64,000 nucleotides of DNA from an uncultured delta proteobacterium (GTDB lineage: Bacteria > Myxococcota > Myxococcia > Myxococcales > Anaeromyxobacteraceae): NCBI GenBank assembly GCA_963814585.1, contig CAWFDF010000016.1, positions 1 to 64,000 of the forward strand, read 5' to 3'. A program made the position numbers. This document shows, in pieces, positions 15,001 to 33,000 of this stretch (position 1 is its first letter; each line of letters starts with the position of its first letter).

Positions 15001-18000
15001 GCCGCCACCGGTGACGGGCTCCAGGCCACGCCCGAGCAGTCCGCCAAGGTGGTGGCCAGCGCCGGCAGCGTCACCGTCACCTACGGCCAGGTGCTCAAGG
15101 AGCTGGGGGGCGGCCACGGCGGCGCCGGAGGATCCGGTCGCGCCTCGCCCGAGGTGAAGGCCACGCTCGCCCAGGACCTGCTCGGGCGGGCCGTGCTGGA
15201 GCAGGCCGCCATGAAGCGCTTCTCGAGGGACCCCGCGGTCCAGGCGGTTGCCGCCAGGGCCGAGCGCGCCGCCGTCGCCGCCGCCTACGCCGAGAAGCTG
15301 CGCCGCGAGGCCCCCGGGCCCAGCACGGCCGAGGTGGAGGGACGCTACGAGGCCCGCAAGCGCGACTTCATGACCCCCGGTGGGCGGCGCTGCTTCCAGC
15401 TGGTCGCGCCGACCGAGGCCGCCGTGAAGAAGCTGGCGGCCCGGGTCGCCGCCGGCGAGGACTTCGAGAAGGTGGCCGCCGACAGCTCGGATGGCCGGAG
15501 CGCCGCCAAGGGCGGCGAGGTCGGCTTCATCACCGACGACGAGATCGCGCGGGTCGAGCGGCCGGAGGGCGAGCCGGCGCTGGCCGCCGCGGTGGTGGGC
15601 ACCCCGGCCGGGCAGCTGAGCAAGCCCGTCAAGACCGCCGTTGGCTACCGGGTGGTGCGCTGCGAGCCCTACGTCCCGGCCAAGGGGGCCACGCTGGACG
15701 AGGTGCGCCACCGGATCACCATGGAGCTGAAGGGCGAACGCTCCGTCGCGGCGGTCCGGCAGAGGGCCGCGGCGCTGCGGGAGAAGGCCAGCGTCCAGGT
15801 CGAGGAGGCCGCGCTCGCCGCCATGCTCCCTCCCAAGAAGTGATGCTGGGTGATTTCGCCCATGGTTGGGGGATTTACCGCTATCCTCACCGTTGCCGGC
15901 CGGCCAACCACCTGATAGGGCTGGCCATGTCGGTGGCACCACGAATGCTGTGAAGCGAACGGCTCCATCCTTCTCCGACCCCGCCGGCGGCTCTCCCCCC
16001 CGGGAGCCGCGCCCGCGGCCGCGAGCACCAGGACCCGAGGAACGAATGCTCGACCGCTCTCCATCGATCGCTCCACGCTGGCCCGAAGCCCGGCGTGCGC
16101 GGACCCCACGGCGCCACGCTCCTCCCGCTGGCAATCCTCGCCGCGGCCGCGCTGGCCATGGGCGGGTGCTCCACGGGCGCCGGTGCCCGCGGCGGCAGCG
16201 CCGGCGGGAGCGGGCGGAAGGTCGCCGCCAAGGAGTGCGTGGCCTGCCACGCGGCGACGCTGAAGCAGCAGGAGCGGAAGCTCACCCACAAGCCCTTCGC
16301 GGACGCCAAGGGGTGCGAGTCCTGCCACCGCCGCCACGGCATCGTCGGCGTCAACGTGCTCCAGAAGGAGGAGCCGGAGCTCTGCTTCGGCTGCCACGAG
16401 AAGCAGAAGAAGGAGTTCGGGCAGGGCGTGGTGCACGAGGCCATCCGGGGTACCGGCAAGGCCAAGTGCACCTCGTGCCACGCGGCCCACTCCTCCGACC
16501 TGCCGAACCTGATGCGGGTCTCCACCAACGAGGCCTGCGCCACCTGTCACAAGAAGGCGCAGCTGCAGGGGGCCAGGGTCCACGCGCCCGCCGCCAAGGA
16601 CTGCGGGACCTGCCACATCCCGCACGCCAGCCCCCAGAAGCAGCTCCTGGTGAAGGAGGAGAAGGCGCTCTGCGGCGGCTGCCACGAGGCGGGCGACGCC
16701 AGGATGAAGAAGGCGCACGGCGGCCTCCCGGTCTCCGGCGCCAGCTGCGTCCAGTGCCACTCCCCGCACTCCGCCGCCGCCGCCGGCGGTCTGCACCCGA
16801 GCGTCCACGCGGTCGGGTCGGACTGCGCCGAGTGCCACGCGGCCGGCTCGGACAAGGCCAAGCCCTTCGCCGTCAAGAAGGCGGCGCCGGAGCTCTGCTT
16901 CGGCTGCCACGACACCCAGCAGGCCGACCTCAAGAAGAAGGTGGTCCACCCGCCTGCCGAGGGCTGCACCGACTGTCACTCGCCCCACGCCGCCAAGGGG
17001 CCCAAGCTCCTCGTCCAGGGCGTCCGCGAGACCTGCGCCGGGTGCCACGAGCCATCGCCGCGAAGCTGGCGACCAGGCCCCACGCGCCGGCCCGCGACGG
17101 GAAGTGCGCCGCCTGCCACGCGCCGCACGGCTCGGACAACAAGCGGCTCCTCGTCGCCACCGGCCCGGCGCTCTGCACCGGCTGCCACACGGCAGCCGCC
17201 GAGTGGCTCAAGGCCAAGGTGGTCCACGCCCCGGCGCGCTCCGGCGACTGCGGCGGTTGCCACGACCCGCACGGCTCGCCCAACGCCAAGCTGCTGGTCA
17301 AGGGGGCTGGCGAGCTCTGCTACGGCTGCCACCAGAAGCAGAAGGAGGCCTTCACCGGCGACAACGTCCACCGCCCGGTCCGCGAGGGCCAGTGCGCCGC
17401 ATGCCACCAGCCGCACGGCTCGGCGCAGGCCAAGCTCCTCAACGTCCCGGCGGCGCGGCTCTGCGACACCTGCCACGCCTTCGACAAGCGCTACGAGAAG
17501 ACCAAGCTCCACGCCCCGCTCGCCAGCGGCGGCTGCGCCGCCTGCCACGACCCCCACGTGGCCGGGCAGCCCAAGCTCCTCAAGTCCCCGGTCGCCAGCC
17601 TCTGCGCCGGGTGCCACGAGAAGGTGCCCAAGGCGCTCGACGCCAAGGGGGTCGTCTCCTCGCACCGGCCGGTCCGCAACGGCGAGTGCACCGCCTGCCA
17701 CGAGCCGCACGGCTCGAAGGACAAGGCCTTCCTCAAGAAGGGGCAGCTCGAGGTCTGCGGCGACTGCCACGGCGAGCTGGTGAAGCGGCTGGCGCGCCGG
17801 GACGCCCCCAGCCACGCCCCGGCCCGGGACGGCGACTGCGGTGCCTGCCACGCCGGTCACGCCTCGGCCCAGCCCTCGCTGCTGCTGAAGGCCGGGAAGC
17901 AGCTCTGCCTCGAGTGCCACGACGCCAAGGACGCGGCGCTGGTCAAGACCCACTCCGGCTACGACATCGACGGGAGCTCCTGCCTCGGCTGCCACGATCC

Positions 18001-30000: not shown

Positions 30001-33000
30001 CGCTGGACGGCGGGCTGCTGTTCGACGACACCAACCTGATCGAGCAGAACGCCGACATCCGTGATCTGGCCGCCTTCCCGGGCCAGGTGCTCCGGGAGCG
30101 GCTGGGCACCGGCACCCGCGTCCTCACCGACCTGACGTTCGCCCTCGACTACGCCCGTTCCGGGCTGGCGCCGCGCGCCTACCACGTGACCAGCCTGGCG
30201 CTCCACCTCCTGGCGGTGGTGCTCGCCTTCCTCCTCGGGCGGCGGCTGCTGGCCGGGCTCGGCTGGCCGGATCCCGAAGGTCCGGCGCTGGCGGCCGCGG
30301 CGCTCTGGGCGCTCCACCCGCTCAACAGCCAGGCCGTCAACTACGTGGTGCAGCGCGCGGAGGTGATGGCCTCCCTCTTCTACCTGCTGGCGGCCTGGCT
30401 GGTGCTGATCGCGGTGGAGCGTGGGCGCACCTGGGCCGGCGCCGCCGCCTACCTGGGGGCGCTGGTGGCCACCCTGGCCGGGCTCGACTCGAAGCAGATC
30501 GTGGTGACCATTCCCGCCGTCGTCCTGCTGGCGCTGGTGACCACCGGCGCGCCGGCGGGACCGCCGGCCCGCCGCTGGCTCGTCCGCCTCGGGCTGGCGA
30601 CGCCCTTCGCGCTGCTGGCCCTGTGGGTCGCCACCCGCACCATCCCCACGCTCTCCGGGAACAGCCACGTCGGCTTCGACATCCCCGGCCTCTCCCCGGC
30701 TGGCTACCTGCTGAGCCAGACCCGGGTCCTGGTCCAGTACCTCGGGCTGCTGGCCTGGCCGGCCGGACTCAACCTGGATCACGGCCTCACCCCGAGCCAC
30801 TCGCTGCTGGAGCCGGCGGTCCTGGCCTCGACGGCGCTCCTGCTGGCGCTCTGCGCCGGCGCGCTCGCGCTCGCCTGGTGGGGCTCACGGCCGGGCCGCG
30901 ACCAGCGGGTGGTCGCGGCCTCCAGGCTCGCGCCGTTCGGCCTGGCCTGGTTTTTCGTGGTCCTCTCGCCCACCTCCAGCGTGGTCCCGCTGGTGGACCT
31001 CATGTTCGAGCACCGGGTCTACCTGGCCTCCTGGGGAGTCGTCCTGGCGGTGGTGGTGCTCGTGTCCGCTGCCCTGTCGAGGCTGGTCCAGCCGCCGGAG
31101 CGCGCGGCGACCGCGGGGCTGGTGCTGGTCCTGGTGACCGGCGCGGCGCTCGGCGTCGCGCTCCACCAGCGCAACCGGGTGTGGGCCGATCCGGCCACCA
31201 TCTGGGCCGACGTGGTCGCCAAGGCCCCCGGCAACTGGCGCGGCTACCAGAACCTGGCCCAGGTGCTCGCCAGCCGCGGCCAGTACCGCCCGGCCGTCGA
31301 GCTGCGGGAGCGCGCCCTGACGGTCGCCCGCCAGCCCCAGGACCGCGCCGAGGTGCTGCGCAACCTGGGGGCCAACCTCATCGAGCTCCAGCAGGTCGAT
31401 TCGGGCCGCCGCCGCGCTGCTCGAGGCGGAGCGGCTCATCCCGCGGGACGCCGGCGTGCAGAACAACCTGGCCATCTGCGCCGAGGAGCTGGGGCGGCTC
31501 GACGAGGCGGAGCGGCGCGCCCGGCGGGCCATCGAGCTGGACCCGGCGCAGCCCAACGCCTACGGCACGCTGGGGCGGATCCTGGCGCGCCGCGGGGACC
31601 TGGGCGGGGCGCTGCAGGCCTTCGGGCAGGCGGCCGCCCTGAGCCCGGACGACCTGATCCCGCTCCACAACCTGGCCCGGGCCCAGGAGCTGGTCGGCCG
31701 CCCGGCGGAGGCCTGCGCCACCTGGCGGCGCTACGGCGGGGTCCGCGGCGGCGTGGGCCGTCGGGATGCCGAGGCGGCGCGGGCCCGGCTCCGCTGCCCG
31801 TGATGCTGGCCCCGGCTCCTCTTCCGGGCTGAAGGGCGGCGACGCCTGGGCTATCCTCGCGCCCCGCCATGGCCCCCGCACTCCTCGCCTGCCTCACCTG
31901 GGCGCCCGCCCTGGTGGGGCTGGGGGCCGTCGTCCCCCACCGCGCCGATCCGGCGCTGAGGCTCGCCGTCGCCGGGCTGCTCGGCCTCGGCGTGGCCGGG
32001 GTGGCCGCGACGGTGGTCCACTTCGTGGCGCCGGTCACGCCCTGGGTGGCCCTGGCCATCTGGCTGGCGGGCCTGGCGCTGGCCGTCGCCCACCGGCGCT
32101 GGCTGCTCGAGGCGGCCGACCGGCGCCACCTGCTCCCGCTCGCCGCCCTGCTCGGCGCGGCGGCCTTCCTGGCCCGCTCCCCGGACTTCCAGTACGACAC
32201 CGGCTACTACCACCTGCAGCAGGTCGCCTGGCTCCAGCGCGCCTCGACCTACCTGGGCACCGCCAACGTCCACTACCGGCTCGGCTTCAACACCCTCTGG
32301 TCGCCCGTGGCGGCGGCGGTCGAGCTCCCCTGGCTCGAGGGCGAAGAGCGCCTTCTTCCTCAACCTGCTGCCCATCCTCTTCGCCGGGCAGGCGGTCCTG
32401 GTCGGGATCGCCGGCCTGCTCCGGGGCCGCTGGTCCTTCGCCGCCTGGCTCCTGGCCGGCGGCGCGCTCCCGCTGGCCAGCGCCACCTTCGGCGTGGGCG
32501 GGCTCTTCGTGGACTACTCGCTGGCGCTGGTGAGCTTCCTCGCCTGGGCGCTCTGGGCCGCGGCCCTGGAGCGTGGCGAGGGCGGGCTCGGCCCCGAGGC
32601 GCTCCCGGCGGCGCTGCTCTCGATCCTGGCGCTCCTGCTCAAGGCCTCGGCCGCCCCGCTCCTGGGCTTCGGCGTGGTCCTGCTCCTGGTGCGCCGCAGC
32701 TCGGTCGAGCGATCGACCTGGAGGGCGCTGGCCATCGCCGCCCCGGCGGCGGTCCTGCCCTGGCTGGCGCGCGGGGTGGCGCAGTCGGGCTGCCTGGTCT
32801 TCCCGGCGGCGCCCACCTGCCTGTCGTTCCTCCCCTGGGCGGTTCCACGTGACCGCGTGGCCGAGATCGCCCGGGTGATCGGCGACTGGGCCCGGGCGCC
32901 CGGGCTCAATGCTCCGCCCCTCTCCACCTGGGTGCCGCTCTGGCTGCCGGGCGTCCTGGCCGACTACCCGGAGGCGAAGCTGCTGCCGGCCATCTTCCTG

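Follow-up and report, generated by a model that had tools for sequence, protein, structure and literature searches.

We analyzed a 64,000-nucleotide window of contig C16 from the genome of an uncultured member of the Anaeromyxobacteraceae. The gene map of the window places a multihaem cytochrome cluster on one strand, with its genes in the order previously described:

14254..15843, +, second prolyl isomerase/foldase of PPIC type, lying upstream of the cluster (Pfam Rotamase matches; three frameshifted pieces)
15934..15948, +, -24/-12 site of RpoN (sigma-54) type preceding the 42-haem gene (also on C1 and C6)
16046..19318, +, 42-haem paired-CxxCH cytochrome (lipobox-like N-terminus; two single-base slips on C16)
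19321..20307, +, NHL-repeat beta-propeller (PF01436, E 9e-21)
20495..20509, +, RpoN-type -24/-12 site before hex1 (sequence match)
20642..21769, +, hex1, hexahaem cytochrome of the OmcS family, 375 aa including a signal peptide (profile, fold, His pattern)
21786..21815, +, hairpin of 13 perfect base pairs around a GAGA loop, 16 nt past the hex1 stop (read from sequence)
21844..22770, +, hex2, shorter OmcS-family hexahaem paralogue, 308 aa (A1 profile score 110)
22767..24212, +, cytochrome with 9 CxxCH and a terminal CxxxCH (motif count; 20 His)
24228..26387, +, OscE-type beta-barrel of the outer membrane, plug-less, with 719 aa and 28 strands (AF2 model, profiles)
24990..25433, +, discoidin/CBM32-like insert of the barrel, placed between strands 11 and 12 (residues about 255-402)
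26384..26968, +, lipo1, OscF-type lipoprotein (GNA1162/PelC/CsgG fold group; profile matches)
26972..28036, +, lipo2, exported, lipo1 fold twice; OscG-type (similarity to lipo1)
28065..29915, +, SurA/PrsA-type prolyl-isomerase (PPIase) chaperone lipoprotein; OscH-type (Pfam Rotamase twice, SurA_N)
29922..31832, +, polytopic membrane protein with TPR tail (about 9 hydrophobic segments; frameshift near residue 493)

A recount bore out the gene order on one strand and the CxxCH counts (30, 6, 6, and 9) of the first-pass annotation, as well as the 42 CxxCH motifs of the giant cytochrome in the copies on contigs C1 and C6, and Pfam and NCBIfam matches agreed with the NHL, PPIase, TPR, and CsgG/LpoB-like products. 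The locus had been given as 17042-31832, but the giant cytochrome gene begins outside that range, at 16046. The suspicion that this gene (g03860) was cut by an assembly error gained support: one C is lost from a CCC run at about 17051 relative to both C1 and C6, and one further single-base slip lies between 16046 and 16095, giving 12 + 30 CxxCH. An assembly error is the most likely cause of the break on C16, and the three copies probably represent strain haplotypes. On C1, the hexahaem, decahaem, barrel, and TPR genes are full of frameshifts; the slips differ from copy to copy and reach the flanking genes, the pattern expected of assembly noise. The dN/dS ratio between C16 and C6 was below 1 in all eight genes tested (0.18 for the 42-haem chain). 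The upstream PPIC-type foldase is optional and also precedes the 42-haem gene in genome G029.

The osc (omcS-companion) cluster of Geobacter sulfurreducens was reportedly the subject of Shen et al. 2025. It comprises GSU2504-GSU2493 (PMC13194489, PMC13712944, PMC12307469, bioRxiv 2025.11.06.686851, each as far as its available text goes). Published accounts, again in the portions available, tie the maturation and secretion of OmcS to a block of eight genes (GSU2500-2493), assign the letters oscC, oscI, and oscJ to GSU2501, GSU2495, and GSU2494, and point out that most OmcE and OmcS regions contain large barrels; the mechanism of OmcS secretion has been called speculative. Our Osc letters follow gene order and haem counts, via the canonical loci described below and not GSU2499-GSU2493 themselves.

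The barrel had been described as having almost no relatives. With hits grouped at 50% identity and its own sequence counted, an exhaustive phmmer search instead returned 302 clusters at E<=0.001, of which 130 were left at 1e-10 and 85 at 1e-30. The single protein occurs, as first noted, in 1 of 12 other genomes of the genus, and in 5 of 36 of the family, but the barrel family is not rare: its profile matched 39/66 same-family genomes, 44/401 of the phylum, and 18/151 in the phylum of G404. Barrels of the same family adjoin close OmcS homologues, and the gene order there is that of the published Geobacter osc cluster. In these canonical loci the OmcS-like gene, propeller, barrel, both lipoproteins, and PPIase are present in 19/19, the large cytochrome pair is present in all 18 that reach far enough, and one OmcS-like protein matches 6EF8 at E 8.5e-127. 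The view of the barrel as a new, near-orphan family failed. A profile built only from variant barrels matched 18/18 canonical barrels (E 6e-41 to 3e-14). The barrel of the window aligned with the L017 canonical barrel over 681 columns (hhalign, 100%) and, by tblastn, at 24% identity over 564 aa (E 9e-14), and variant barrels form a separate group from canonical ones (SH-aLRT 100). The variant, seen in 7 other genomes, has a fused 26+16-haem chain, lacks the OscD-like propeller, and places a decahaem gene before the barrel; genomes G338 and G388 carry it as well as a second barrel locus, whose score is of the canonical type.

An intact chain of 42 CxxCH is encoded on C1, on C6, and in 5/5 other variant genomes with this arm. 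It consists of DmsE/MtrA-type paired CxxCH units (TIGR03508) and is colinear with an OscI-like protein of 26 haems plus an OscJ-like one of 16: against six 42-mers, the order 26+16 scored 1801-1899 versus 1368-1450 for 16+26, with the best registers at haem 1 and haem 27. The large-cytochrome content of the osc cluster is thus present as one 42-haem fusion. We take GSU2494 (oscJ) to hold 16 haems, and 16-haem proteins were seen in canonical loci. For GSU2495 (oscI), the available account of G. sulfurreducens gives 26. The NHL propeller is, by sequence similarity (24-31% identity), the counterpart of the NHL gene downstream of the 16-haem gene in canonical clusters.

By profile and model, hex1 and hex2 are identified as OmcS relatives, a kinship that the earlier reading had overlooked along with the osc counterparts of the remaining genes. 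The hex1 family profile matched OmcS 6EF8 end to end (E 1.7e-14; profile 24-355, OmcS 1-405), followed by OmcE 7tfs and 9yuq. A fold search with the hex1 model (pLDDT 70, built without haems) against 48,161 chains by VIA-align gave OmcS a Z of 10.4, with the next at 4.2 (249 residues aligned, rmsd 4.5). Foldseek, too, ranked OmcS first of 4. Against this assignment, the Foldseek E was only 0.06, phmmer with hex1 alone did not find OmcS, and a long branch separates hex1 and hex2 from the canonical OmcS-like proteins. Like the OmcS nanowire subunit (PDB 6EF8, 6NEF), its best structural match, hex1 has six CxxCH in the same order and all 12 haem-ligand His aligned, although identity in structural alignments is 17-20%. 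Of 26 hex1, hex2, and canonical rows, 24-26 keep the six CxxCH and six additional His columns. An extra His, three residues past the first CxxCH, occurs without exception in 78/78 hex1 relatives; we take the His at this position in OmcS (His16) to be the inter-subunit ligand. One of the 12 His ligands of OmcS is supplied by the neighboring subunit (PMC6584659). Hex2 shares the His pattern of hex1, with one distal His loosely aligned, and forms its own clade. Hex1 is a candidate major filament subunit, and hex2 a candidate minor, base, or tip subunit.

The next cytochrome had been counted among proteins of 6-9 haems. Its 9 CxxCH stand, but an additional terminal CxxxCH, present in 6/6 variant copies examined, and 20 His suggest that it is probably a decahaem protein; Atlas clusters of similar unnamed cytochromes match it with a score of 0.95. 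Its gene ends 15 nt before the barrel, in the position of the OscD-like propeller of canonical clusters. The profile of that propeller matched 19/19 canonical loci and found none in G000 (91.7% complete) or the variant loci, which counts against a filament, as the available literature credits the propeller with shaping the wire.

An AF2 model from 117 sequences (pLDDT 93.7, pTM 0.84) upheld the giant barrel with a discoidin (PF00754) insert, but the DSSP string gives 28 barrel strands rather than about 30. The modeled barrel is plug-less and about 52 A across by geometry. We take MtrB to have 26 strands. Mtr is not known to include a discoidin insert, a lipoprotein collar, or chaperone genes. 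MtrAB/MtrCAB (PDB 6R2Q) shares the large plug-less barrel and a paired-CxxCH cytochrome chain, and MtrB again had the best Foldseek TM among the matches listed, now 0.44/0.48, with 8% identity. It was not among the best 50 matches listed by VIA Z, indicating that the match reflects barrel size. Assignment to the MtrB/PioB sequence family was rejected: there was no such Pfam or NCBIfam match, and the 117-sequence profile missed PDB MtrB at E<=1. The insert, predicted from strand parity in the model to be an outward-facing loop, forms a separate sandwich whose F5/8 type C fold was confirmed (PF00754 E 1.5e-4, residues 272-381, below the curated cut-off; profile matches to YeCBM32 2jd9, E 7.8e-5, and galactose oxidase). 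It is the best-conserved part of the family, with 19/148 columns at least 80% conserved versus 9/523 in the barrel.

As in the osc cluster, two lipoprotein-type genes and a prolyl-isomerase chaperone follow the barrel. Lipo1 (GNA1162, E 1.8e-7; 25-33% identity to canonical copies) is a candidate periplasmic ring under the barrel. It shares the PelC-type signature (9h80_C, E 5e-6) of the PelBC exopolysaccharide exporter (PDB 9H80), and by analogy a barrel with a lipoprotein ring is a plausible layout here, although PelBC has another cargo and a much smaller barrel. Lipo2 matches its canonical counterparts at E 1e-16 to 1e-11, with no lipobox Cys seen at its N-terminus in the C16 copy. The PPIase shares 24% identity with the canonical one (E 2e-12), and homologues of the TPR membrane protein occur in 6/19 canonical loci. 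The latter presumably resembles TMTC/GT-C glycosyltransferases, a likeness that found no support from Pfam.

The two RpoN-type sites are the only matches in the window, versus 0.29 expected from the -24/-12 consensus (PMC2725144); an rpoN gene is present in the genome, and related GG-N10-GC sites lie upstream of hex1 in 3/5 other variant loci. The putative promoter and the hairpin bracket hex1. The hairpin, absent from the terminator-scan list because it has no T-run, could stabilize or shorten the hex1 message.

By homology and anatomy, the osc block has its counterparts here in the barrel, the pair of lipoprotein-type proteins, the PPIase, the NHL propeller, and the 42-haem chain. We consider it probable that the locus is a divergent osc variant whose products fold, export, and anchor an OmcS-type filament supplied by a 42-haem wire. 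It shares with the osc cluster an upstream OmcS-family hexahaem gene, the order of barrel, two lipoprotein-type genes, and PPIase, and the 26- and 16-haem content followed by an NHL propeller. It differs in that the fused chain and NHL gene lie upstream of the hexahaems, so the eight-gene order is not kept; in having a decahaem gene but no OscD-like propeller; and in its divergent hexahaems (mature proteins of about 355 and 275 aa versus 407). Hex1 would be made in excess from its own sigma-54 promoter and loaded with haem in the periplasm, with the PPIase keeping it folded. It would pass through the 28-strand barrel or be seated on it, above a PelC-like collar of lipo1 and lipo2, and would polymerize head to tail via the His after the first CxxCH. 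Electrons would cross the periplasm along the 42-haem chain to reach the barrel, while hex2 and the decahaem protein (in place of OscD) may be minor base, adaptor, or tip pieces, and the discoidin loop could hold the emerging, probably glycosylated, filament. Of the proposed porin-cytochrome-type conduit of a new build, the trans-envelope electron-transfer locus stands and the new build does not, as osc-type counterparts were found; all that is left of the porin-cytochrome idea is a role that the barrel may have within an osc-type system.

A conduit without a filament, in which the barrel wraps around the decahaem protein or the end of the 42-haem chain, as MtrB does around MtrA, and hex1 and hex2 are surface terminal reductases acting as monomers or short oligomers, appears unlikely. 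The plug-less barrel with its MtrB match, the DmsE/MtrA-type units, and the 15-nt spacing of decahaem and barrel genes are consistent with it. So are published observations, in the text available, that among OmcS and its four G. sulfurreducens paralogues OmcS alone is known to make a wire and that OmcS in Shewanella needed a porin-cytochrome conduit for electrons. Two further published observations count against the osc reading: homology guides poorly from one genus to another, and Shewanella was reported to form OmcS filaments from the omcS gene alone. The invariant extra His and the OmcS-like gene beside all 19 canonical barrels mapped argue for the filament, the absence of MtrB from the best 50 VIA matches weakens the Mtr parallel, and a dedicated PPIase, PelC-like lipoprotein, and separate promoter suit an assembly line better than a 1:1:1 complex.

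We regard as very unlikely a haem-bearing surface structure that serves mainly adhesion, biofilm scaffolding, or electron storage and not long-range respiration, or a cluster partly decayed in this lineage. The respiratory role of cytochrome filaments is disputed in the available literature, where G. sulfurreducens without all three filament cytochromes still reduces Fe(III) oxide and filament bundles are proposed to serve biofilm formation; the lectin-fold loop and the glycosylation genes on the flanks of the locus suggest surface interactions. A conserved 42-haem chain would be costly for a non-redox role, and the frameshifts, many on C1 and some on C16, are countered as signs of decay by the dN/dS values and by slips that behave like assembly noise. 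Those flanking genes also speak for the filament reading: glycosylation genes likewise adjoin freshwater OmcE clusters (PMC13712944), which, in the part of that source available, share a filament subunit, multihaem cytochromes, propellers, and a large barrel likened by description, but have a tetrahaem subunit and two propeller lipoproteins.

A new class of electron conduit is not established by this locus; the barrel family is widespread, and what is distinctive is the fusion of two wire-like cytochromes in one 42-haem protein, suggesting that OscI and OscJ act as one chain. The variant is a natural experiment bearing on the exit, anchoring, and electron charging of cytochrome nanowires: barrel, lipoproteins, chaperone, and 26+16-haem content are kept, the cytochromes are fused, and OscD is dropped, which points to the core of the nanowire machine. 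It also offers divergent subunit candidates missed by single-sequence OmcS searches. More speculatively, and on balance doubtfully, the variant may be a second, undescribed OmcS-type nanowire lineage, with hex1 as a new, shorter, fast-changing subunit, one continuous periplasmic wire ending in the 28-strand barrel, the decahaem protein as an adaptor through it, and a single machine that would hold the filament and also connect it to the cell. If extended, such a wire would be about 30-35 nm long.

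The cytochrome locus is real and belongs to a known kind, probably the osc type described from Geobacter sulfurreducens, of which it forms a distinct variant. It lies in the window C16:1-64000 of a 4.34-Mb assembly (73% GC, 18 contigs), with further copies on contigs C1 and C6, and is laid out as follows.

14254-15843, + strand: PPIase, frameshifted
16046-19318, + strand: giant cytochrome, 12+30 CxxCH on C16; 42 in a single frame on C1 and C6
Next in order, + strand: NHL propeller; cytochromes with 6 (hex1, 20642-21769), 6 (hex2, 21844-22770), and 9 CxxCH; 719-aa protein (the barrel, 24228-26387)
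After the 719-aa protein, + strand: two lipoprotein-type genes (lipo1, 26384-26968; lipo2, 26972-28036), second PPIase, TPR membrane protein

Intergenic gaps are -4 to 28 nt from the second hexahaem gene onward. Two slips break the giant-cytochrome gene on C16, one near its start and one at ~17051, where a CCC run is short by one C relative to both C1 and C6. Because flanking genes are frameshifted too, the break is likely an assembly error, as the first-pass annotation suspected for its 30-haem frame; the 42 CxxCH are intact on C1 and C6. Programmed frameshifting was rejected, since the frame is continuous on C1, on C6, and in 5 further genomes. Matching sequencing runs comprised 6 DNA runs (shares 0.05 to 0.12) and no RNA run among the matches listed; contigs of 4 DNA runs yielded short pieces, none spanning the 17051 slip among the matches listed.

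We mapped 19 canonical-type loci (16 genomes) and the variant loci of 7 other genomes, selected from search matches. All 19 canonical loci contain one or more OmcS-like genes, a YVTN-type propeller, a barrel, two lipoproteins, and a PPIase, followed by 26- and 16-haem cytochromes in the 18 of 18 that reach far enough (16 exactly 26+16, one 25+16, and one split as 26+8+8); in most, an NHL gene comes next. In canonical locus L016, the OmcS-like protein matches OmcS (6EF8) at E 8.5e-127. The canonical arrangement is the same eight-gene order as reported for GSU2500-GSU2493 of G. sulfurreducens, which includes the 26-haem GSU2495 and is linked to nanowire maturation and secretion in two reports (bioRxiv 2025.11.06.686851, PMC13194489). 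A search for the G. sulfurreducens locus by the OmcS N-terminal motif did not recover it, giving one match among genome contigs (L017) and two short contigs among metagenome contigs, and no Geobacter names occurred among the 120 relatives listed for the L017 barrel. L017 itself (DYJL01000030.1, labelled a Nitrospira japonica MAG) is canonical, with three tandem OmcS-like genes and a GC3 of 0.36 to 0.48. Three genomes (G018 C19, G026 C1, and G382 C1; L056-L059, L063, L064) each carry two complete canonical clusters 25 to 45 kb apart.

The variant order is 42-haem cytochrome, NHL, hex1, hex2, decahaem, barrel, lipo1, lipo2, PPIase. Its cytochrome arm was seen in G029, G338, G388 (lipo1 uncalled), G271, and, with its three genes inverted, G023; the variant loci of G227 and G003 are truncated by contig ends. 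In the G023 locus (L011, G023:C6), the 42-haem, NHL, and hex1 genes are inverted relative to the arm with hex2 and the barrel, and hex1 may extend into a longer frame (L012). A profile built, against circularity, from 8 variant barrels only matches 18/18 canonical barrels (E 6e-41 to 3e-14). The two sets also separate in a quick tree (SH-aLRT 100). By score, the 149 other barrel relatives listed divide into 113 variant-like, 21 canonical-like, and 15 unclear, and G338 and G388 each have a second barrel scoring in the canonical range.

The propeller profile matched 19/19 canonical loci and nothing in our assembly or the variant loci, where the propeller position is taken by the probable decahaem, a cytochrome that has 20 His and, besides its 9 CxxCH, a conserved CxxxCH. 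As judged from motif register, the 42-haem chain is the equivalent of the 26- and 16-haem proteins: the best register is at haem 1 for the 26-haem set and at haem 27 for the 16-haem set, and concatenation in gene order (26+16) beats the reverse in 6/6 42-haem proteins. Fusion and an ancestral state are alike conceivable. If extended, the chain could span 30 to 35 nm at ~0.7 to 0.8 nm per haem, by analogy with the rise given for OmcZ (58 Å for 8 haems).

A phmmer search of the PDB with hex1 alone returned nothing relevant, and its relation to OmcS emerged only by profile and fold. A profile from the best 78 of 110 relatives (among 7,999 candidates) matches OmcS 6EF8 end to end (E 1.7e-14), followed by the OmcE-type 7tfs and 9yuq. 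With the AF2 model of hex1 (pLDDT 69.9), Foldseek placed OmcS first among 4 rows (E 0.06), and VIA-align over 48,161 chains gave OmcS a Z of 10.4 (249 aligned, rmsd 4.5) against 4.2 for the runner-up. The six CxxCH and six more His columns are kept in 24 to 26 of 26 hex1, hex2, and canonical sequences; we take the His three residues past the first CxxCH to be the intersubunit ligand of OmcS. Published descriptions give OmcS 12 His ligands, one contributed by the neighbouring subunit (PMC6584659, PMC9473688, PMC12954529). Hex1 and hex2 are OmcS relatives, and in a FastTree phylogeny they form two groups separate from the canonical OmcS-like proteins (support 1.0). OmcS homologues in Anaeromyxobacter have already been reported (PMC10954620).

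The first-pass annotation had taken the barrel for a new-family orphan with almost no relatives. That is ruled out by an exhaustive search (302 clusters at E<=0.001, 85 at 1e-30), by the canonical barrel matches, and by a family-profile survey that scored two candidates per genome and found the barrel in 44/401 genomes of the phylum (our assembly counted), 39/66 of the family, and 3/12 of the genus; a word-limited search is the most likely reason for the low earlier count. The profile also found it in 18/151 genomes of the phylum of G404. A model from 117 of 150 sequences listed, short fragments left out, reached pLDDT 93.7 and pTM 0.84. It upholds a barrel with a discoidin insert and revises the "about 30 strands" to 28 counted, 11 before and 17 after the insert at ~255-402. 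This discoidin/CBM32-like insert is the most conserved region in the barrel family and, by strand parity in the model, is predicted to face outward. We found neither the variant nor the insert described in the literature searched, and Shen et al. 2025 may already cover the variant; large barrels are noted for most OmcE and OmcS regions (PMC13712944).

We consider it probable that an OmcS-type filament is assembled on this barrel and fed by the 42-haem chain: hexahaem assembly would take place on the barrel, and the chain would supply the filament with electrons. The modeled C-alpha diameter is ~52 Å, and the OmcS filament is described as ~4 nm thick (PMC6584659). Since lipo1 resembles PelC, present as 12 chains in the deposited PelBC structure, the analogy suggests a collar beneath the barrel. 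Several published statements, as cited here, weigh against filament assembly: secretion and anchoring of wires are called still speculative (PMC12307469), omcS alone is reported to yield OmcS filaments in Shewanella (bioRxiv 2023.10.26.564108), the respiratory role of such filaments is disputed (PMC11077965), and among OmcS and its paralogues the only proven wire is OmcS (bioRxiv 2025.11.06.686851).

The first-pass annotation had proposed a porin-cytochrome conduit, here without a filament, which we regard as unlikely. MtrB, its top TM match, is again best by TM among the matches listed (0.44/0.48, 8% identity); VIA returned generic barrels (Z 13.7 to 15.7), and the search for a solved relative gave none, since the profile matches only CBM32 domains and, weakly, stretches of porins. 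Modelling the barrel in complex with the final 12 haems of the 42-haem chain scored 0.00 in two runs in which the controls did not fold, a result that counts neither for nor against a conduit. Besides filament assembly, the barrel may also serve as a conduit.

C6 aligns over its full length to C16:9939-33488 at 91%, and C1 nearly whole to C16 at 94%; small contigs C7, C15, C17, and C18 overlap other, larger contigs (84 to 99.6%, 1.5 to 12 kb), C15 covering window 1-5820 at 86 to 92%. Given these overlaps, the three copies look more like haplotypes of different strains that share one bin than like paralogues, in line with the co-assembly that the earlier annotation had raised. Frameshifts are many in C1, and C6 is almost intact. 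When C16 is compared with C6, identity and dN/dS are 96% and 0.18 for the 42-haem chain, 78% and 0.67 for hex1, and 79% and 0.54 for the barrel, in line with the fast change reported for surface cytochromes (bioRxiv 2025.11.06.686851). The stretch matching window 11799-13067 is absent from C1.

The assembly encodes rpoN and cytochrome c assembly genes. RpoN-type sites (consensus from PMC2725144) lie before the 42-haem gene and before hex1; the window holds no others, and 0.29 would be expected (2 reached in 1/100 shuffles), with a pattern fitted post hoc after the site at 20495 had been seen. The strict pattern precedes just 1/21 canonical hexahaem genes (relaxed, 3/21), so such a site is no general feature of these loci. 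Upstream of the 20495 site, 20308-20494 holds imperfect direct repeats of the GGGC(C)AAA..ACCCG type, possibly enhancer-protein sites. The promoter scan found 0 sigma-70 promoters (0.2 expected), and the terminator scan no T-tailed terminator 3' of hex1, where a perfect 13-bp hairpin lies.

Upstream, 339-11832 is a glycosylation region with many frameshifted genes (SAM methyltransferase-like and flippase-like frames, a DegT/DnrJ aminotransferase, GT2 and GT4 glycosyltransferases), and a gene with fibronectin type III repeats, broken by frameshifts into several pieces (11979-14189), sits just 5' of the upstream PPIase. Pfam gave no confirmation that the TPR membrane protein is a glycosyltransferase; directly 3' of its gene is a frameshift-split LIC_10190-family membrane protein (31869-33507). 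A possible sulfur-compound respiration block at 37074-47959 comprises an ArsR-rhodanese fusion, a YeeE-type sulfur transporter, a molybdopterin oxidoreductase piece with a 4Fe-4S subunit, an Mrp/NBP35 ATPase, and SCO1. Other giant multihaem frames in the assembly are C14:170276-179632 (58 CxxCH), C14:232122-235967 (29), C8:540103-544569 (28), and C8:436026-440036 (20).
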